DNA of 64,000 nt, taken from sequence record ON528735; one strand, 5' to 3'. Of this stretch, positions 1,698 to 32,682 are shown piece after piece. The notes under the pieces were generated by a model. It made no database searches, had not been told where the DNA came from, and saw nothing but the letters and a program-made list of their open reading frames with translations. This DNA comes from Shigella phage ESh25. The first letter of the stretch is position 1; the number at the start of each line of letters is the position of its first letter. A program made the position numbers and the translations under genes.

Positions 1698-2526
1698 TTA
1701 TATATTTCCAATTATAGCCTTCAACACTTTTACGTTCGCCATTTAAACATTTTAAAATATTTCCTTTGCTAGAAATATTAAAATATTTTGCTGCGTCTGG
1801 TATATAATTAAATGTTTTTAAAAGAACACCATCTTTATATGCGCCAAATAAATTAAGAGTATATTTTTCTCGAAGACGCTGATGTTTCCTTTTCATAACC
1901 TCAGGATTTGCATACGCCAACTTCAATGAATTTCTGTGTTTTTCTTTTACTTCAGGTTTTTGCATTGCTAACTTAGTTAGCCTGGAAATTTTATTTCTAA
2001 CTTCGTCAGTTTTCATTGCATTTGACAAATTTAATAAAGTTTTATTTCTAACTTCAGGTTTTTGCATTGCTAACTTAGTTAGTTCTCTATGTCTTTTTCT
2101 AAAATCGTCATCCTTCCATATATTTTTCGATAATTTTGACATAGAGCGGTGAAATAATTCCTTTTCACTGGAATACAATTTAAAAATTTCATCCAATTCA
2201 TCCGCATTAAATCTATCGGTATTCGAGTTTATCATTCTATGAAAGGCATAACACATTTTACTATTGCTTGTTTTAGCTAAATAGTAATGAGCTAACGCAT
2301 GGTCATAATATGACAAATTAACAATATTCCATTTATCTGTTTTATATTCAGGAAATATAGATTTGGGAAGCACGTGATGTGCTTCCGTTTTTCCTTTTAT
2401 TTTAGGATTATTATAATTTTTTGTTATCAAATCAACATATGACAATAGTAAATCATTATTTTCTTCAAATATTAAAGCTAATTTATCATTCACAAAATCG
2501 CAAGGATAAAATCTATCATAATTCAT
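1687..2526 (-). CDS. HNH-family homing endonuclease (Mob-like) inserted between nrdD and nrdG
   Basis: 279 aa; HNH-like motif EAHHVLPKS...N...DHALAHYY; repeated basic DNA-binding modules (LTKLAMQKPEV x2); first 13 codons copy the nrdG start. Confidence 0.85.
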   Translation of the reverse strand: MNYDRFYPCDFVNDKLALIFEENNDLLLSYVDLITKNYNNPKIKGKTEAHHVLPKSIFPEYKTDKWNIVNLSYYDHALAHYYLAKTSNSKMCYAFHRMINSNTDRFNADELDEIFKLYSSEKELFHRSMSKLSKNIWKDDDFRKRHRELTKLAMQKPEVRNKTLLNLSNAMKTDEVRNKISRLTKLAMQKPEVKEKHRNSLKLAYANPEVMKRKHQRLREKYTLNLFGAYKDGVLLKTFNYIPDAAKYFNISSKGNILKCLNGERKSVEGYNWKYINEL

Positions 2527-4340
2527 TGGTGTTTAACCCTATGCATGATTTCTTTATTTTTGCCAAGATTAAATCCGCGCTCGTTCGGATTTCCCAAATA
2601 ACCACATGTTCTTCTTATTGTGTTCATCTTTTTAGGATCAGTTTCTCCACAAATAGAACAAACAAATCCGTTTTCAGTAGGAGTCATTTCATGGGTACTT
2701 CCGCATGTAAAACACTTATCTACTGGCATATTAACACCAAAATAATCTAAATGCTGTGCAGCATAATCCCACACGGCCTCAAGACCTTTTAAGTTATTTT
2801 TCATATCAGGAAGTTCAACATAAGAAATGTGACCACCTGTCGCAATGAAATGATATGGCGCTTCACGAGAAATCTTTTCAAACGGAGTAATATTTTCTTC
2901 TACTGAAACATGGAAACTGTTAGTGTACCAGCCTTTATCAGTAACATCTTTTACGCTTCCATATTTTTCTGTATCGAGTTTACAGAAGCGATAACAAAGG
3001 TTTTCAGCAGGAGTCGAATATAAACTAAAAGCAAACCCAGTTCTTTCAGTCCACTGTTTAAGACGAGCATTCATTTTAGTTAAAATTTCTTGTCCAATAT
3101 CACGACCGACAAGAATATTCAATTCATGAATACCAATGTATCCTAAAGACACTGAACTTCTACCGTTTTTAAATAACTCAATTATGTCGTCATCAGGTTT
3201 AAGACGAACCCCGAATGCACCTTCTTGGTAAAGAATAGGAGCAACAGTCGCTTTAACTCCTTTTAAGGAACTAATTCTACACATCAAAGCTTCAAAACAT
3301 AAATCCATTCGTTCATTGAACAATTCGATAAATTTCTGTTCATTGAACTGTGTTCCAATATAAGAATCTAATGCGATACGAGGAAGATTCAGTGTTACAA
3401 CACCGAGATTATTACGTCCATCAAGAATTTCATTGCCAGTCGAATCTTTCCATACGCTCAAGAAACTACGACAACCCATTGGAGAAACAGGAATAGATGA
3501 GCCAGTGATAGCTTTATTGTTCTTAGCTGAAATAATATCAGGATACATTCTTTTGCTTGCGCACTCTAAAGCAAGTTGCTTAATGTCGTAATTCGGATCG
3601 TCTTTATAAAGATTAACGCCTTCTTCAACGAACATAACAAGCTTAGGGAAAATAGGAGTTATCCCATCACGACCAAGACCTTTAATACGATTTTTCAGAA
3701 TTGCTTTCTGAATCATTCGTTCAGTCCAGTCAGTTCCCGTACCAAATGTAATTGTTACAAAAGGCGTTTGTCCGTTTGAACTAAAGAGAGTGTTTACTTC
3801 ATATTCATAAGCTTGGAATGCATCGTATACATCTTTTTCTGTTTTAGATTGAGCATAATTTAACGCATCAGCGATTTGCCATTTTTCTGCATCCTCAATA
3901 TGTTTTGCATAGGTGCGTTTAACATAAGGAGAAAGTACTTTATCTACATTCGCAAAAGTCGTTCCGCCGTATTGGTGAGAAGCAACCTGTGCAGTAATTT
4001 GTGCCATAATTGCAGTAGCAACGCCAATTGATTTAGGAGTTTCAATCTGTGCATTACCAAGCTTAAATCCGTTCTCAAGCATTCCTTTTAAATCTACTAA
4101 ACAACAATTAGTAAATGGAAGAGCAGGGGAATAATCAATATCATGGAAATGAATAATTCCGCTTTCATGCGCTTTCATAATAAAAGACGGGACCATATTT
4201 TTGGCAATGTGTTTAGACACAATACCAGCCATAAGGTCCCGTTGAGTTGGAAAAACACGAGAATCTTTATTAGCATTCTCGTTTAAAAGGTCTTTATTAG
4301 TTTTATGAATCAATCCTTCAATTTCTTTTTCAATTGTCAT
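2523..4340 (-). CDS. nrdD: anaerobic ribonucleoside-triphosphate reductase (glycyl radical enzyme), continuous ORF without intron
   Basis: 605 aa uninterrupted ORF; C-terminal glycyl-radical region and Zn-ribbon cysteines; recalled near-identity to T4 NrdD. Confidence 0.95.
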   Translation of the reverse strand: MTIEKEIEGLIHKTNKDLLNENANKDSRVFPTQRDLMAGIVSKHIAKNMVPSFIMKAHESGIIHFHDIDYSPALPFTNCCLVDLKGMLENGFKLGNAQIETPKSIGVATAIMAQITAQVASHQYGGTTFANVDKVLSPYVKRTYAKHIEDAEKWQIADALNYAQSKTEKDVYDAFQAYEYEVNTLFSSNGQTPFVTITFGTGTDWTERMIQKAILKNRIKGLGRDGITPIFPKLVMFVEEGVNLYKDDPNYDIKQLALECASKRMYPDIISAKNNKAITGSSIPVSPMGCRSFLSVWKDSTGNEILDGRNNLGVVTLNLPRIALDSYIGTQFNEQKFIELFNERMDLCFEALMCRISSLKGVKATVAPILYQEGAFGVRLKPDDDIIELFKNGRSSVSLGYIGIHELNILVGRDIGQEILTKMNARLKQWTERTGFAFSLYSTPAENLCYRFCKLDTEKYGSVKDVTDKGWYTNSFHVSVEENITPFEKISREAPYHFIATGGHISYVELPDMKNNLKGLEAVWDYAAQHLDYFGVNMPVDKCFTCGSTHEMTPTENGFVCSICGETDPKKMNTIRRTCGYLGNPNERGFNLGKNKEIMHRVKHQ

Positions 4341-4810
4341 TTTAAACTCTTTCTAAGCTGCTTCTTAAATGAAGCTATTAATTGTGTTTTAGTGTCAGAT
4401 TCATTATATTCAAATCCTCTTTGAAGCATCTCAGCCATCATTTCCTCTTTTCCTAAACGAGAAAATTCCTTTGATTTATCTCCAACAAAGTTAGGGTGAA
4501 TATTATTTTGGGTGTAATCGGATTTTAAATAAGTAAGTAAATTTTCTAACCATTCAAGATAATCAACACCTTGCCCCTTTAAGCCAGAACGATTAAATTT
4601 ATGTTTCATTTGACCTTCTGCGGCATTGCAGAGATTACAAAGCAATCCACGTACCTTTCCTGCTTTTGGTCCATTTAATTCATGGTCATGGTCGAGGTGA
4701 TTAGCTTGAACATCAGGATTTAGTTCTCGTTGGCAAATTAAGCATTTACCGTTTTGTGCATCATAAAATTTCTGTTTTTCTTCTTTGTATAATTTGCCAG
4801 TCAATAGCAT
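4337..4810 (-). CDS. 49: endonuclease VII (Holliday junction resolvase)
   Basis: 157 aa, Zn-binding CLIC...CNLC and HLDHDHE motifs; recalled identity to T4 gp49. Confidence 0.95.
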   Translation of the reverse strand: MLLTGKLYKEEKQKFYDAQNGKCLICQRELNPDVQANHLDHDHELNGPKAGKVRGLLCNLCNAAEGQMKHKFNRSGLKGQGVDYLEWLENLLTYLKSDYTQNNIHPNFVGDKSKEFSRLGKEEMMAEMLQRGFEYNESDTKTQLIASFKKQLRKSLK

Positions 4811-4851
4811 AATAAACCCTTACCTTAAATAGATAAGGGTATTTATTATTT

Positions 4852-5337
4852 TCAAGTATTGTAAAACATTTGATTCAATCGCTTATATTGCCGAATCTTT
4901 TGGTCAGAAAAAGAAATTTGGGTTTCAAGCCATTCAATATATTCTGCCGCAGCTTGCATCAAATTTCCTTCATAGCCATCGTTATTTTCTTGTGCAGCTA
5001 ATTTAGCTAATGCGTATGAAATACGTTCACCTTGAAAATCAGCTTTAGGCTTCTGAACAACTTGATTAGTTCTATCTACAACTTCTTCAATTTCGCCATT
5101 TTCTACTGATTCAGTATTCCACAAGCACCAATACGTAATTGGCTTATCGTAGATGTTAATAATCTTTCCATCAGAAAGTTCAATTTCAATAATTCCAGTA
5201 TCAGGCTCTATATCATCTTCACATTCTTTTGCAAGTTCACGAACTTTAAAGACAGTACCTGCACTAAGTTCCGGCCAGTAATTACACAGCCCTTTATCAG
5301 CACGATTAATTCTAAACCACTTATCTACTGTAATCAT
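4852..5337 (-). CDS. pin: Pin, inhibitor of host Lon protease
   Basis: 161 aa from internal ATG (MITVDKW...); recalled near-identity to T4 Pin; early promoter upstream. Confidence 0.85.
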   Translation of the reverse strand: MITVDKWFRINRADKGLCNYWPELSAGTVFKVRELAKECEDDIEPDTGIIEIELSDGKIINIYDKPITYWCLWNTESVENGEIEEVVDRTNQVVQKPKADFQGERISYALAKLAAQENNDGYEGNLMQAAAEYIEWLETQISFSDQKIRQYKRLNQMFYNT

Positions 5338-28206: not shown

Positions 28207-28336
28207 AGTTTTGTGAAAAAATTTTTAAAAAGTTTTAGGGAATTCTAGGGTCAGGAGGGGCAATTAAAAGATAGGATAATATATTATAAAGGGTAGAAAC
28301 TAAATGATGCCTAGAGAGGCCCGGAAAGGCCTAGAT

Positions 28337-28367
28337 ACCAAAAAGCCCCAACCTTTTGGTCGGGGCT
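28337..28367 (-). terminator. rho-independent terminator (GCCCCGACC-AAAA-GGTTGGGGC plus TTTTT)
   Basis: 9-bp GC-rich stem and T run on minus strand; near-identical copy at 28893-28921. Confidence 0.6.
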
Positions 28368-28374
28368 AAGAATG

Positions 28375-28848
28375 TTATTTGATTTGTTTAGCAGACCAAA
28401 TGTGGTCTTTAATAATTTTTTGGATGTCTTCAACATACTCTAGGTCATGAGCATGTGGGTTATCTTTGAAACTATAAGCACGAGCTAGCTTTTGGCCTTC
28501 AGTTTTGATTACTAAAAGCTCTTTAAGGATAGCTTCATATTTAGAGATAATTCCTTTAACAATATTTTTTTCTTGTGTAGTTTTAGGGTCTGCTTTAGGA
28601 GCAGGTTTACCCGAAGCCTTTGCAAAAGCAGCGCCAGTAGCAACCAAACTTTTCCAGGCCATACTAACTGCATTCCCTGTAAATCCTTCGGCTTTCATAT
28701 CACGAGCAAATTGGAATCGTGATTCATCGGAAGCATCTTTATAGGAATATTTACCCGCGGCAATGGCTGCTTTTGCGACAGCTTGAATTTCGGTGCTAGA
28801 TGCTTCATTTAACACCGCTTCATTTAAAAATTGAGCATATGATTTCAT
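28375..28848 (-). CDS. putative head internal protein with capsid-targeting-like N-terminus (MKSYAQFLNEA)
   Basis: N-terminus resembles the T4 IP capsid-targeting sequence MKTYQEFIAE; late promoter TATAAATA upstream; flanked by duplicated terminators. Confidence 0.5.
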   Translation of the reverse strand: MKSYAQFLNEAVLNEASSTEIQAVAKAAIAAGKYSYKDASDESRFQFARDMKAEGFTGNAVSMAWKSLVATGAAFAKASGKPAPKADPKTTQEKNIVKGIISKYEAILKELLVIKTEGQKLARAYSFKDNPHAHDLEYVEDIQKIIKDHIWSAKQIK

Positions 28849-28884
28849 CTTATTTCCTGTTTTAATTCGTGGTTTTAATATACT

Positions 28885-28892
28885 TATTTATA
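28885..28892 (-). promoter_or_regulatory. T4 late promoter (TATAAATA)
   Basis: Exact TATAAATA on minus strand about 35 nt upstream of the ATG at 28848. Confidence 0.5.
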
Positions 28893-28921
28893 CCAAAAAG
28901 CCCCAACCTTTCGGTCGGGGC
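28893..28921 (-). terminator. rho-independent terminator ending the tRNA/stable-RNA transcript
   Basis: GCCCCGACC-GAAA-GGTTGGGGC hairpin plus TTTTT on minus strand. Confidence 0.6.
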
Positions 28922-28924
28922 TAA

Positions 28925-29238
28925 GCCTTGCGGCAACCTTGTCGGGGTTCCACCTGCTAAGGCAAGTGTTTGTACGAAACGCCGGGATTCGAACCCGGTT
29001 ATTAAGCAGTTGACGCTACTTAATATTTTTAAAAGGCCATATCTCGACCATATCCGAACGTTCCGTCAAAAACGCTACTCGGCTTACGGCAAAGATATTT
29101 CCTCGAATCGATAATTCGGTGCGCCGTTTCTGCTGTGATATAAGGGGACATTAACAAAACATAAAGATTTATTAATGCCAGTCCTTAAACAGGGAACATC
29201 AGTCCGACGACTTACCGGTAGCGACCCGGCTTCTTGTT
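28925..29238 (-). ncRNA. structured non-coding region; includes a tRNA-like element (T-arm and acceptor stem, aberrant body), possible species-1/2-type stable RNA
   Basis: No plausible ORF; CCGGG-TTCGAAT-CCCGG T-arm at 28990-28974 with pairing CGGAACG/CGTTTCG acceptor-like stem but no canonical anticodon arm. Confidence 0.3.
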
Positions 29239-29314
29239 TGGTCGAGGCAGTAGGAATCGAACCTACGACCTAGGACTTAGAAGGTCCTTGCTCTTCCTTC
29301 TGAGCTATGCCTCG
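29239..29314 (-). tRNA. tRNA-Arg: tRNA-Arg (anticodon TCT)
   Basis: Cloverleaf folded by hand: 7-bp acceptor, anticodon loop CTTCTAA, T-loop TTCGATT, encoded CCA. Confidence 0.9.
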
Positions 29315-29318
29315 GATT

Positions 29319-29393
29319 TGGCGGACGTGATAGGATTCGAACCTATAACCAATCGCTTAACAGGCGATCGCTCTGCCATTGAGCTACACATCC
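29319..29393 (-). tRNA. tRNA-Asn: tRNA-Asn (anticodon GTT)
   Basis: Cloverleaf: acceptor GGATGTG/CACGTCC, anticodon loop CTGTTAA, T-loop TTCGAAT, CCA encoded. Confidence 0.85.
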
Positions 29394-29397
29394 AAAT

Positions 29398-29484
29398 TGG
29401 TGGGGAGTGGTGGAGTCGAACCACCCGAGTCGCAATGACAATGGATTTACAGTCCACACCGCTACCTCTACGGGATAACTCCCC
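29398..29484 (-). tRNA. tRNA-Tyr: tRNA-Tyr (anticodon GTA), long variable arm
   Basis: Cloverleaf: acceptor GGGGAGT/ACTCCCC, anticodon loop CTGTAAA, variable arm GTCATTGCGAC, discriminator A, CCA encoded. Confidence 0.85.
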
Positions 29485-29493
29485 AAATTAATT

Positions 29494-29568
29494 TGGTGGC
29501 CCTGGGTGGAATTGAACCACCATCTGGCGATTATGAGTCGCTTGCTTGAACCTTCCAGCTACAGGGCC
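29494..29568 (-). tRNA. tRNA-Ile: tRNA-Ile (anticodon CAT, lysidine-type) or Met
   Basis: Cloverleaf: acceptor GGCCCTG/CAGGGCC, anticodon loop CTCATAA; T4 tRNA-Ile carries a CAU-type anticodon. Confidence 0.85.
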
Positions 29569-29569
29569 T

Positions 29570-29646
29570 TGGTGCTGATTGACGGAATCGAACCGCCGAC
29601 CTTCTCATTACAAGTGAGTTGCTCTACCTACTGAGCTAAATCAGCA
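29570..29646 (-). tRNA. tRNA-Thr: tRNA-Thr (anticodon TGT)
   Basis: Cloverleaf: acceptor TGCTGAT/ATCAGCA, anticodon loop CTTGTAA, T-loop TTCGATT. Confidence 0.9.
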
Positions 29647-29650
29647 AAAC

Positions 29651-29740
29651 TGGCGGAGGCGATAGGATTTGAACCTATGAGTCGCCGGAGCGACTGCCGG
29701 TTTTCAAGACCGGTGCATTAAACCACTCTGCCACGCCTCC
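29651..29740 (-). tRNA. tRNA-Ser: tRNA-Ser (anticodon TGA), long variable arm
   Basis: Cloverleaf: acceptor GGAGGCG/CGCCTCC, anticodon loop CTTGAAA, long variable arm. Confidence 0.9.
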
Positions 29741-29746
29741 AAATAT

Positions 29747-30355
29747 TTATATATTGTTAATTTGATTTAGAATTCTTTTTGCTTGAGTATGACTTACGCC
29801 AATATGCTTAGCATATTTAGATAATTCACCCCGCTTAGAAAAATCATATAATTTAGAAATTTCTATTCTTCTTTTTCTTTCATCCGCAGAAACTTTTGCT
29901 TCGTTTGCTTTTGCTATTTTACGTTTAGCTTCTTGAGAATGAGTTTTACCAGCAAAGCCATTTTTCATTAATCCATTTGAAGACCATCCTTTTAATTTTC
30001 CGTTAGAATGTGCCTTTTTAACACCCAATGAAATTAATTCGCGTTGCTGATCTGTCATAGGATAATTATTTATATGATCCCATCCACCTTCACCTCCAAG
30101 TTTTAAATTATACACATCTGGTCTATTTAAAAACTCTTCTGTGACAATATTTTTCTCGGCTTCAAGCATAGATTCTTTATCATCAAAATACTCTAATATT
30201 TCTTTAGAAAAATTTTCTATGCCATATTTATCTTGGGCTCTTTTTAATAATTTACCAGAACCCATATATCCATCATCTAAATTTTCGGTAGAATGCACAC
30301 CAATATAAATTTTATTATTAATTTTATTTGTTATTTTATAAAGATAAAAATGCAT
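29747..30355 (-). CDS. segB: GIY-YIG homing endonuclease (SegB-like) embedded in the tRNA array
   Basis: GIY-YIG motif (YLYKITN...IYIGVHS) near N-terminus; likely start ATG 30355 with AGGGA Shine-Dalgarno (longer ORF runs to 30397). Confidence 0.8.
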   Translation of the reverse strand: MHFYLYKITNKINNKIYIGVHSTENLDDGYMGSGKLLKRAQDKYGIENFSKEILEYFDDKESMLEAEKNIVTEEFLNRPDVYNLKLGGEGGWDHINNYPMTDQQRELISLGVKKAHSNGKLKGWSSNGLMKNGFAGKTHSQEAKRKIAKANEAKVSADERKRRIEISKLYDFSKRGELSKYAKHIGVSHTQAKRILNQINNI

Positions 30356-30400
30356 ATCAGTCCCTAATAAAGAACTGAGCGTCTCACGACGAGTCATAAA

Positions 30401-30475
<75 letters not shown>

Positions 30476-30479
30476 AAAT

Positions 30480-30566
30480 TTGGTGCGAGAAGTGGGACTC
30501 GAACCCACAAGGAAATCATTCCGCAGCATTTTAAGTGCTGTGCCTTTACCAATTTGACCATTCTCG
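30480..30566 (-). tRNA. tRNA-Leu: tRNA-Leu (anticodon TAA), long variable arm
   Basis: Cloverleaf: acceptor GCGAGAA/TTCTCGC, anticodon loop CTTAAAA, T-loop TTCGAGT, CCA encoded. Confidence 0.9.
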
Positions 30567-30567
30567 C

Positions 30568-30640
30568 GCTGGGAATAAAGGACTCGAACCTTTGCATCTA
30601 GCAGTCAAAGTGCTATGCCTTACCAACTTGGCTAATTCCC
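30568..30640 (-). tRNA. tRNA-Gln: tRNA-Gln (anticodon TTG), CCA not encoded, 1 nt from tRNA-Leu (dimeric precursor)
   Basis: Cloverleaf: acceptor TGGGAAT/ATTCCCA, anticodon loop CTTTGAC; 3' end abuts tRNA-Leu 5' end. Confidence 0.9.
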
Positions 30641-30738
30641 AATTATTAACAAAGGCTCTCAAACAAGAACCCTTGATGATAGAGGGTATTAATCAGTGCG
30701 GTATGAGTTAATAATAACAAATAGTTCTTAAAGCATAT

Positions 30739-31026
30739 TTAACATTTATGATAATACATATTTACGATGCATTCAAGACCCAAAGGATTCTTGAAAATAT
30801 CATATTCAAGAAGACCTTTTTCTGTTTCAATAAAGAAATCAAAATTTACTGTATTAAATTTACGGTCTTCCTTCACTAATTTAACTTGAGAAGATGAACG
30901 GTCAATGTAAACTTTTTCAACTTCAAAACATGTTAAAATGCCATAATCATCAATCAAGGCTTTAGCTGCTTCTTGATCATATTTATATCCATTTTCAATG
31001 GATGATACTTTTGCATAAAAAATCAT
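30739..31026 (-). CDS. hypothetical protein (95 aa)
   Basis: Last gene of a three-gene early operon upstream of the tRNA array. Confidence 0.55.
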   Translation of the reverse strand: MIFYAKVSSIENGYKYDQEAAKALIDDYGILTCFEVEKVYIDRSSSQVKLVKEDRKFNTVNFDFFIETEKGLLEYDIFKNPLGLECIVNMYYHKC

Positions 31027-31028
31027 TA

Positions 31029-31418
31029 TCAGCCTTCATCAACAATAGTATGAGTGTGGGCATTTACAATTTGCCACCAATCAAAGCGATTAGAACCATA
31101 CATTGGTTTGTTCTCATTTTCTTTGATAATGTCACGGAGTTCATCTTCGGTAGCGGCTTTCGCGATTAAATCAGCATATCCACCGCGAGGATAATAATTA
31201 TCACCTGCAAAAAGTAAAAAGTTTGGTTTAATGTTATTGAACTCTTCAAGAGTAATAACTGTTCCACCAGGTTGAACAATATCTACATAACTATATCCTA
31301 ATTTTTGAGCAGCATCTACTGCTTCAAGCAAGGTATCATGAGCCCATCCAATTTGGCAATCTGGCTTTTCAGATGGATTAGCCTGATAATCTGCATATAC
31401 TTTATACATTTTACTCAC
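31029..31418 (-). CDS. hypothetical protein (129 aa)
   Basis: Intact ORF; no recognisable motif. Confidence 0.55.
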   Translation of the reverse strand: MSKMYKVYADYQANPSEKPDCQIGWAHDTLLEAVDAAQKLGYSYVDIVQPGGTVITLEEFNNIKPNFLLFAGDNYYPRGGYADLIAKAATEDELRDIIKENENKPMYGSNRFDWWQIVNAHTHTIVDEG

Positions 31419-31596
31419 CTTTAGAAATTTTATCCATAACGATAGCGATTAAACCAATTAAAAATGCTACTACAAGCGAAAACACATTTTCTGCTGTAGT
31501 TAATAATCCGCATATAAATCCAACAAACATTGAAAAACTAAAAGCAGAAGCAGAAATTGCAATAGCAACATTTCGAATTAATTCACAGCGTTTCAT
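31411..31596 (-). CDS. small membrane protein (about 61 aa)
   Basis: ATG at 31596 after promoter/leader; two hydrophobic helices. Confidence 0.5.
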   Translation of the reverse strand: MKRCELIRNVAIAISASAFSFSMFVGFICGLLTTAENVFSLVVAFLIGLIAIVMDKISKGE

Positions 31597-31636
31597 TTTA
31601 TTCTCCTCAGTAGTTGATAGGGTAATAGTATCACTA

Positions 31637-31666
31637 CTAAAACCCCGTGTAAACAACTTTGTGAAA
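31637..31666 (-). promoter_or_regulatory. T4-type early promoter (copy 1 of duplicated cassette)
   Basis: GTTTAC at 31666-31661, TACTAT at 31642-31637; about 35 nt upstream identical to the copy at 31956-32010. Confidence 0.55.
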
Positions 31667-31924
31667 TTATTTTAAATCTTCTAATCGTTTCTTCATCTTA
31701 GAACCATTTTTAGCGATTTCTCCTGCGTCAGAGCATAATGCTAAAAGTGCTTTAACTTTAGTTTGGTCTCCTTTAAAAGACGAAGGATCGACTGCAGCAG
31801 CAAGTTCTTTAATACGAGAGAAAAGACGCTCAGCTTCAGCTAAAGCCATTCCAAGCTTTACTTCCATACCATGAGAAGATTCAGTGATAATAGTTTCTGT
31901 AGCAAACTCTTTATAAGTTTTCAT
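31667..31924 (-). CDS. putative head internal protein with capsid-targeting-like N-terminus (MKTYKEFATE)
   Basis: N-terminus closely resembles the T4 IP capsid-targeting sequence MKTYQEFIAE; 85 aa; sits between duplicated promoter cassettes. Confidence 0.55.
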   Translation of the reverse strand: MKTYKEFATETIITESSHGMEVKLGMALAEAERLFSRIKELAAAVDPSSFKGDQTKVKALLALCSDAGEIAKNGSKMKKRLEDLK

Positions 31925-31955
31925 TTTTATTTTCCTAATTAATTTTGATGAGGTA

Positions 31956-31985
31956 ATAGTATCACTACCTCATCAGTGTGTAAAC
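31956..31985 (-). promoter_or_regulatory. T4-type early promoter (copy 2 of duplicated cassette)
   Basis: GTTTAC at 31985-31980, TACTAT at 31961-31956; -10 lies in the loop of a 9-bp inverted repeat GATGAGGTA/TACCTCATC. Confidence 0.55.
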
Positions 31986-31997
31986 AACTTTGTGAAA

Positions 31998-32682
<685 letters not shown>

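Follow-up and report, generated by a model that had tools for sequence, protein, structure and literature searches.

Three short early genes ahead of the tRNA array of a T4-type Shigella phage correspond to T4 trna.4, trna.3 and trna.2 and may encode accessory host-interaction proteins

Introduction

The locus described here raises the question of what is done by three short genes that are early, dispensable and kept in hundreds of T4-type phages, the best-studied phage among them, and that adjoin the variable internal-protein locus and a gene of proven anti-CBASS activity. We addressed this question in a 64,000-nt stretch of the DNA of Shigella phage ESh25 (ON528735; one strand), referred to below as the window. 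A first-pass annotation of this DNA had described a three-gene early cassette of unknowns lying between an internal-protein gene and the tRNA array. That layout is borne out by our analysis, but the annotation missed that the genes are already named in T4, and the unit has no visible end at 30739. The genes trna.4, trna.3 and trna.2 are, as such, a known unknown and not a new kind of element; their practical worth is that of a compact set of clearly delimited candidates. What is added here is modest and consists of a corrected start for trna.3, a probable continuity of the cassette with the tRNA unit together with an overlapping putative middle promoter, a modular architecture of Trna.3 whose C-terminal domain is widespread in free-standing form, and the neighbourhood that Trna.2 homologues share with a CCA-adding enzyme gene. 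The leads that can be put to the test are the recovery of Trna.2 in a DRT1 pull-down, the position of Trna.2 homologues beside tRNA genes or the CCA-adding enzyme gene, and the modular build of Trna.3.

Results

Identity and setting of the cassette

By nucleotide comparison, the window comes from a Tequatrovirus of the T4 type whose nearest relatives are RB51 and wV7. A megablast search of positions 30600-31700 against phage genomes returned 712 records, nearly all of them T4-type phages of Escherichia or Shigella, with wV7 and RB51 as the top matches (98% identity over the full length). The three minus-strand reading frames follow one another in the order 31411-31596, 31029-31418 and 30739-31026, and the same three frames are annotated as tRNA.4, tRNA.3 and tRNA.2 in RB51. 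Sequence and synteny mark them as almost certain orthologues of phage T4 trna.4 (NP_049748), trna.3 (NP_049747) and trna.2 (NP_049746; UniProt P13324). The window and T4 agree in position (after 57B and the internal-protein gene and before tRNA-Gln), order, strand, promoter, junctions and gene lengths. All 61 residues of Trna.4 (100%) and 89 of the 95 residues of Trna.2 (94%) are identical to T4, whereas Trna.3 agrees with its T4 counterpart at only 76 of 136 aligned positions; in comparison to RB51, Trna.3 (126/126) and Trna.4 (100%) are identical. The two genomes also differ around the cassette, the upstream internal-protein gene being of the Ip5 type in the window and ipI in T4, and the downstream tRNA set and the position of SegB not being the same.

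Each protein matches a PHROG profile over its full length, namely phrog_1692 for Trna.4 (E 6e-35; residues 1-61 of 61), phrog_1411 for Trna.3 (E 7e-56) and phrog_2023 for Trna.2 (E 5e-47). The precomputed Pfam assignments agree, with PF26870 carried by all Trna.4 homologues, PF26894 by Trna.3 and PF27001 by Trna.2. The assignment of Trna.3 draws in addition on its identity to RB51 and its place between trna.4 and trna.2, and that of Trna.2 on its similarity to the T4 protein and its position before the tRNA array. The earlier statement that none of the three proteins has a recognisable motif is accurate with regard to function, but all three fall into named T4 families.

On the minus strand the local order runs from gene 1 (dNMP kinase) through 57A, 57B and the internal head protein gene to trna.4-trna.3-trna.2, and continues with tRNA-Gln (30568-30641, minus strand), which is the first gene of the downstream array and does not encode its CCA, followed by tRNA-Leu, tRNA-Gly, a SegB-like endonuclease and six further tRNAs. 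The upstream neighbour 57B is Acb1 (PF23474, E 2.6e-60), and the Ip5-type gene occupies the variable internal-protein locus. The order 1-57A-57B-ip-trna.4-...-tRNAs recurs across the Tevenvirinae genera examined and is ancestral in Tevenvirinae; in phage EcS1, trna.4 heads the corresponding slot. Each of the three genes is found in ~760-800 phage records, almost all of the T4 type. The cassette is tightly packed and accessory, and the slot that it fills, with the 57B/internal-protein genes on one side and the tRNA array on the other, is conserved in T4-type phages. An Rfam scan of 28300-32500 matched only tRNAs and found no RNA family overlapping the cassette, and no paralogues of the three families were found elsewhere within the 64-kb window.

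Translation and transcription signals

The reading frames are separated by only 1-2 nt, with the junctions TAA-A-ATG between trna.4 and trna.3 and TGA-TA-ATG between trna.3 and trna.2, and each is preceded by a Shine-Dalgarno sequence (GAGGAG, GGTGAG and GAAGG, respectively); translation of the three would be coupled through these junctions. The middle protein had been read as 129 aa from a GTG at 31418. This codon lies inside the Shine-Dalgarno sequence (AAAGGTGAGTAAAATG, GGTGAG), and the start of trna.3 is most likely the ATG at 31409, which yields 126 aa in full agreement with the RB51 annotation. The 95-aa frame at 30739-31026 is present as it had been described.

A candidate sigma-70 promoter of the early type was located by scanning and by conservation at 31653-31625 on the minus strand, with TTTACA at -35, a 17-nt spacer, TG and TACTAT at -10. 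These features correspond to those of the T4 early class, in which a GTTTAC/TTTACA -35 element and a 17-nt spacer are combined with a TG-extended -10 of the form TAnnnT and an A/T-rich upstream region. T4 and RB51 both share these hexamers, the TG and the A/T tract upstream (AAAGTTG) with the window, and differences are confined to the spacer. Taken alone, the consensus scan falls short of significance, with 21 sites against an expected 15.8, so it is the conservation of the element that supports the promoter. Combined with the early class of the T4 orthologues, the sequence suggests that 31653-31625 functions as an early promoter. In the first-pass annotation this promoter had been drawn at 31637-31666, an interval that spans only the -35 side of the element. 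It had also been taken to be the only one, but a second promoter with identical hexamers lies at 31984-31956, ahead of the internal-protein gene, and no terminator-like site is found between it and the tRNAs, either before the cassette or before tRNA-Gln. Neither a single promoter nor a defined 3' end of the unit is thus established. A hairpin preceding tRNA-Gln was considered as a terminator and rejected, as it is not followed by a U-run.

At the distal end of the cassette, a putative MotA-box middle promoter at 30735-30711 (minus strand; TGCTTTA, 12-nt spacer, TATTAT) overlaps the stop codon of trna.2 and heads the tRNA array. The arrangement ATATGCTTTA-N12-TATTAT fits a Mot box of the form (a/t)(a/t)TGCTT(t/c)A placed ~12 nt upstream of a -10 TAnnnT, and the element is identical in T4. 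Matches to the MotA-type pattern number 13 in the window, an enrichment over the 4.5 expected. According to Broida and Abelson 1985 (as cited in PMC2330249), a middle promoter just 5' of the T4 tRNA cluster accounts for most of its transcription. Read together with the T4 data, these signals suggest that host RNA polymerase would start at the early promoter at 31653-31625 and transcribe the three reading frames, and that early transcription would probably read on into the tRNA genes because no terminator-like site lies in between. Later, the tRNA genes would be transcribed from the MotA-dependent middle promoter that overlaps the trna.2 stop codon.

Expression, dispensability and selection

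In the supplementary time-course data for T4 (PMC9697503), trna.2 and trna.3 are early both as RNA and as protein, and trna.4 and the tRNAs are early RNAs; the Trna.4 protein was not detected in that dataset. The supplement of a T4 transposon study (bioRxiv 10.1101/2025.11.20.689424) classes trna.4, trna.3 and trna.2 as non-essential on E. coli K-12, each having insertions at 92-98% of its TA sites. Two fitness comparisons from the same study were considered here, and they give no significant change for any of the three in the library made on an rnlA-deletion host, and neutral values on the clinical E. coli CFE299 (log2FC 0.06-0.25, adjusted p = 1), and its main text names none of them as a hit. 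We regard the early expression and the dispensability of trna.4, trna.3 and trna.2 as highly probable.

In comparisons with nine relatives, dN/dS was 0.00-0.46 for trna.4, 0.02-0.35 for trna.3 and 0.12-0.36 for trna.2, with a synonymous divergence (dS) that was often >1. Against close relatives, trna.4 shows dN = 0 with dS up to 0.25. The three reading frames are real genes under purifying selection and not chance ORFs.

Trna.4 is a predicted membrane hairpin

The first gene, trna.4 (31411-31596, minus strand), encodes 61 aa from its ATG (6.6 kDa). The two-helix membrane peptide proposed earlier for this frame agrees with what its sequence predicts, which is two hydrophobic stretches at about residues 10-33 and 37-54 (Kyte-Doolittle windows reaching 2.1 and 3.0) between charged termini, the N-terminus being basic (K/R-rich) and the C-terminus charged (DK..K.E). 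The predicted topology is a hairpin inserted in the inner membrane, with the N- and C-termini on the cytoplasmic side. Conservation in the family is highest at these termini, MKRxELIRN and MDKxSKGE, which are invariant or nearly so among 18 homologues; at the C-terminus, overlap with the ribosome-binding site of trna.3 may account for some of it. A holin identity (phrog_785) was considered and rejected, the match (E 0.039) covering 35 residues only and the context of the genes being of the early class with no lysis gene adjoining.

Trna.3 joins a variable and a conserved domain

The product of trna.3 (31029-31409, minus strand) is an acidic protein of 126 aa (pI 4.5), and its AF2 model (pLDDT 85) predicts two small alpha/beta domains, comprising a variable N-terminal domain (residues 1-60) and a conserved C-terminal domain (residues 61-126) with the motif FAGxNYYPxGG ... 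FDWWQIVN. For the N-domain there are two allele classes, which share only ~30% identity; the C-domain is 73-100% identical. The window carries the RB51-type N-domain, which is accordingly ~30% identical to the T4-type allele. Within the allele of the window, the protein is 94% conserved across dS 1.4; each of the two N-domain classes is therefore under constraint, and they seem to be exchanged as whole units.

An exhaustive search with the Trna.3 profile returned 546 representative clusters at E <= 0.001, most of them proteins of 60-100 aa that cover only profile positions ~61-127. Stand-alone C-domain proteins of 60-70 aa include PHROGs 17649, 4811 and 5638 and uncharacterised BFVD entries. 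They share with Trna.3 the patterns (L/F)(L/I)F(A/G)G..YYP.GG and (F/W)DWW(Q/H)(I/V).D and, in structural models, a predicted fold of four strands and one helix (BFVD TM up to 0.87, target-normalised; rmsd 1.8-3 A). They differ from Trna.3 in lacking its N-terminal domain, and some carry other partners instead, such as an N-terminal HTH domain (P0091). Matches of the Trna.3 model among viral predicted structures come from Staphylococcus, Bacillus, Klebsiella and Erwinia phages, all of them uncharacterised proteins, and tblastn places the C-domain in Cellulophaga and Pseudomonas phages as well; in all, the domain occurs in at least four phage families. No tRNA gene was found within 3 kb of stand-alone C-domain homologues in three other phage families. 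This organisation suggests that in Trna.3 an N-terminal domain prone to swapping may confer specificity and is joined to a conserved C-domain, which many unrelated phages have in free-standing form.

Trna.2 and its relatives

The third gene, trna.2 (30739-31026, minus strand), encodes an acidic protein of 95 aa (pI 4.9). Its AF2 model (pLDDT 53) is unreliable, which makes a PDB fold search with it meaningless. In the widest alignment of the family, the invariant residues are mostly hydrophobic or aromatic, and neither the alignment nor the composition reveals a catalytic-type or nucleic-acid-binding motif. We also considered Trna.2 as a diverged copy of the Trna.3 C-domain, with which it shares a hydrophobic strand followed by a Gly/aromatic loop, and rejected this at an hhalign probability of 0.1%.

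In the Tevenvirinae genera examined, at most one reading frame separates Trna.2 from the tRNAs. It is the frame nearest to the array in Tequatrovirus and in one Klebsiella T4-type phage, and one extra frame intervenes in Dhakavirus and Gelderlandvirus. Erwinia phage Cronus has a 27%-identical homologue within its tRNA array, located 2 nt ahead of tRNA-Lys. At 5/5 distinct loci in Vequintavirinae, the homologue (37-40% identical) precedes a CCA-adding enzyme gene (PolyA_pol + HD) by 10-815 bp and lies 1.7-3.2 kb from a gene for a weakly PTH2-like hydrolase, the PTH2 match (E 0.0019) being below the Pfam threshold; Vequintavirinae and T4 share no gene order. In SSE121, no tRNA gene lies within 37 kb of the Trna.2 homologue. 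Searches of phage records and scans of viral contigs and metagenomes found the family at no loci other than those of Tevenvirinae(-like) and Vequintavirinae(-like) phages. The independent lineages are too few for a statistical test of the association between Trna.2 and tRNA genes.

Similarity searches and the DRT1 link

Scans of the three proteins against Pfam, NCBIfam and PADLOC yielded only sub-threshold noise (DUF7554; DUF5092, E 0.0095; TusC, E 0.04), a search of PDB sequences with the family profiles gave nothing better than E 0.87, and the AF2 model of Trna.3 found no PDB fold match better than E 0.19. There was no sequence match to the characterised anti-defence families (Acb1, Acb2, Tad1/2, Ocr/Arn-type mimics and others) and no fold match to them for the Trna.3 model. 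Structure prediction and remote homology, which had been proposed as a check on these proteins, thus link none of them to a characterised protein but do place the Trna.3 C-domain among widespread uncharacterised phage proteins.

The one functional statement on these three genes that we found in the searchable literature comes from pull-downs of DRT1, a defence reverse transcriptase, out of infected cells. [quoted passage not shown] T4 Trna.2 would, on this evidence, be an acidic protein that associates with the active form of DRT1. The enrichment could be direct, or it could be mediated by the DNA adduct, as only wild-type DRT1 carries that adduct.

Discussion

Our findings point to the three products as most likely being non-catalytic binding proteins that would serve host range or counter-defence and would not be needed in laboratory E. 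coli. The non-catalytic part of this reading is suggested by the invariant residues of Trna.2, which form no catalytic-type motif, and by the acidic character of Trna.2 and Trna.3 (pI 4.5-4.9). The host-range or counter-defence part follows from the dispensability of the genes, their position beside Acb1 and the internal-protein locus, their acidity, the allele swapping of the Trna.3 N-domain and the recovery of Trna.2 with DRT1. Like Acb1 (57B) and the genes of the internal-protein locus, they are small, early or packaged, non-essential accessory genes within the same few kb, and close relatives differ by allele replacement both in the Trna.3 N-domain and at the internal-protein locus. In T4 the latter is occupied by ipI, which is reported within the transposon study to inhibit a type IV restriction system (bioRxiv 10.1101/2025.11.20.689424). 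The likeness does not extend to the proteins themselves, as the products of trna.4, trna.3 and trna.2 have no sequence or fold similarity to Acb1 or the internal proteins, and the MKTY/MKTF-type N-terminus common to T4 IPI and the Ip5-like protein of the window is absent from all three.

An anti-defence or host-interaction role, close to the host takeover or anti-defence suggested in the first-pass annotation, is plausible on these grounds, though several observations weigh against counter-defence. None of the three proteins matches a characterised anti-defence or host-takeover protein, and the two T4 transposon comparisons considered here, the library from the rnlA-deletion host and that on CFE299, show no change in fitness. 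The adjacency to anti-defence genes is guilt by association only, the gene order being ancestral in Tevenvirinae. We therefore hold the proposal that at least one of the three products acts in host interaction or counter-defence as a non-catalytic binding protein only tentatively, at slightly less than an even chance. The explanation as a whole, in which identity, expression and function are taken together, is in our judgement an even call, with the functional part setting that limit.

The alternative that survives best, though we consider it unlikely, is that Trna.2, and possibly the whole cassette, acts on or with tRNA by maturing, repairing or protecting the 3' ends or anticodon loops of phage or host tRNAs. 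It would account for the place of Trna.2 next to the tRNA array in Tequatrovirus and the Klebsiella T4-type phage and one frame away in Dhakavirus and Gelderlandvirus, for the Cronus homologue within an array, and for the Vequintavirinae homologue, which accompanies the CCA-adding enzyme gene in all five loci and lies near the PTH2-like hydrolase gene; the tRNA-Gln of the window, moreover, has no encoded CCA. The adjacency in Tevenvirinae, however, is explicable by inherited synteny, so that only Cronus and Vequintavirinae count as effectively independent observations, and the hydrolase that would strengthen the latter is itself a sub-threshold match. The SSE121 homologue is far from any tRNA gene. 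In the searches run here the family was confined to Tevenvirinae and Vequintavirinae, so Trna.2 does not generally accompany tRNA arrays in phages, and the free-standing Trna.3 C-domain proteins of three other families stand away from tRNA genes. Further evidence against such an activity comes from the composition of Trna.2, which is acidic and has neither a nucleic-acid-binding nor a catalytic motif, and from the fitness data on CFE299, where insertions in trna.2 are neutral and the tRNA-repair gene pseT, by comparison, turns conditionally essential.

The two readings could also be merged, with the cassette forming part of a tRNA-centred counter-defence module. Trna.2 would then be tied to the metabolism of tRNA 3' ends or anticodon loops and would engage defences such as DRT1, and the C-domain of Trna.3 would act in many phages as an effector or ligand-binding module whose target changes when the N-domain is swapped. 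We consider this combination improbable.

A different and very unlikely possibility is that the reading frames matter mainly as a transcribed and translated leader that carries early transcription into the tRNA genes before the MotA promoter takes over, the proteins themselves being of little consequence. The path from the early promoter to tRNA-Gln without a terminator-like site, the classification of the T4 tRNAs as early RNA and the dispensability of the genes one by one would all be expected of a leader. A pure leader role is nonetheless contradicted, because the protein sequences are under strong purifying selection, as seen in the absence of nonsynonymous change in trna.4 against close relatives and in the 94% identity of Trna.3 across dS 1.4, and because the Trna.2 and Trna.3 proteins are detected in T4. 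The tRNA array also has its own promoter, and homologues of Trna.2 and of the Trna.3 domain are kept in phages in which they are not located upstream of tRNAs.

That the frames are chance or decaying ORFs of a hyperplastic region, as their small size, their want of a known domain and their non-essential nature might suggest, is ruled out to near certainty by the selection and expression data, given dN/dS values well below 1, conservation of each gene in hundreds of phage records, coupled starts with Shine-Dalgarno sequences, protein products detected in T4 and a confident AF2 model for Trna.3.

Irrespective of how the cassette as a whole is read, the C-domain of Trna.3 is common to phages of Gram-positive bacteria, Bacteroidota and Pseudomonas, and a function for it would annotate hundreds of phage protein clusters together.

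Domain separation and neighbourhood of the Trna.3 and Trna.2 homologues

In Gelderlandvirus, Trna.3 consists of the C-domain only, a protein of 70 aa, and the place of the N-domain is filled by an unlike 61-aa ORF assigned to phrog_7300, as seen at 2101-2501 of the Salmonella phage Melville locus (L005) and also in that of a Proteus phage (L021). The presence of this C-domain-only protein beside the phrog_7300 ORF shows that the N- and C-halves of Trna.3 can exist as separate genes. In Vequintavirinae, the gene for the Trna.2 homologue belongs to a conserved run with two others, one encoding a CCA-adding enzyme (PolyA_pol + HD) and the other a 162-aa 'hydrolase' whose match to PTH2 (peptidyl-tRNA hydrolase) is sub-threshold. 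The run occupies 2501-4982 of the Salmonella phage SSE121 locus (L003), where no tRNA genes were found within 37 kb, and it is also present at four further loci (L016, L017, L034 and L035).

The tRNA array and its leader

The array is headed by a MotA-box middle promoter (TGCTTTA-N12-TATTAT; window 30711-30735, minus strand) that overlaps the trna.2 stop codon and is identical to the T4 element. Between this promoter and tRNA-Gln, the leader contains an 11-bp hairpin (about 30650-30675, minus strand; dG -13.5 kcal/mol, z -2.3) that is kept in T4 and RB51 and has no U-run after it; the hairpin may act in processing or stability. The tRNA-Gln gene (30568-30641, minus strand) directly abuts tRNA-Leu with no spacer and, alone in the array, does not encode its 3' CCA, which is present in the 8 other tRNAs, so tRNA-Gln necessarily relies on trimming and on the CCA-adding enzyme of the host. 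Relative to T4, the window contains tRNA-Asn and tRNA-Tyr but lacks tRNA-Pro, rnaC and rnaD, and its SegB-like GIY-YIG homing endonuclease (216 aa; 29747-30397, minus strand) lies between tRNA-Gly and tRNA-Ser, whereas T4 segB lies between tRNA-Ile and tRNA-Arg.

Genes flanking the operon and the array

In the internal-protein slot lies a gene of the Ip5 type (31667-31924, minus strand; phrog_3499, E 3.7e-50) with just 25/99 residues identical to T4 ipI despite 94-100% identity in the genes on either side, indicating that the allele at this locus has been replaced. This gene has its own early-type promoter-like site (31984-31956, minus strand), separate from the trna.4 promoter and with the same hexamers. 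The neighbouring gene 57B (31998-32453, minus strand) matches PF23474 at E 2.6e-60, and its product is 151/152 identical to T4 57B; it encodes Acb1, the cyclic-nucleotide phosphodiesterase that counters CBASS. Several public records still label it 'RNA ligase'.

At the opposite end of the tRNA array from the internal-protein slot lies a functionally uncharacterised 157-aa ORF (28375-28848, minus strand; phrog_2280) that begins with MKSYAQFLNEAVLNE. T4 internal proteins are targeted to the capsid by an N-terminal sequence (MKTYQEF..E) that this start resembles, so the ORF may encode a further packaged internal protein. Its RB51 orthologue is annotated with 34-bp imperfect direct repeats on both flanks.
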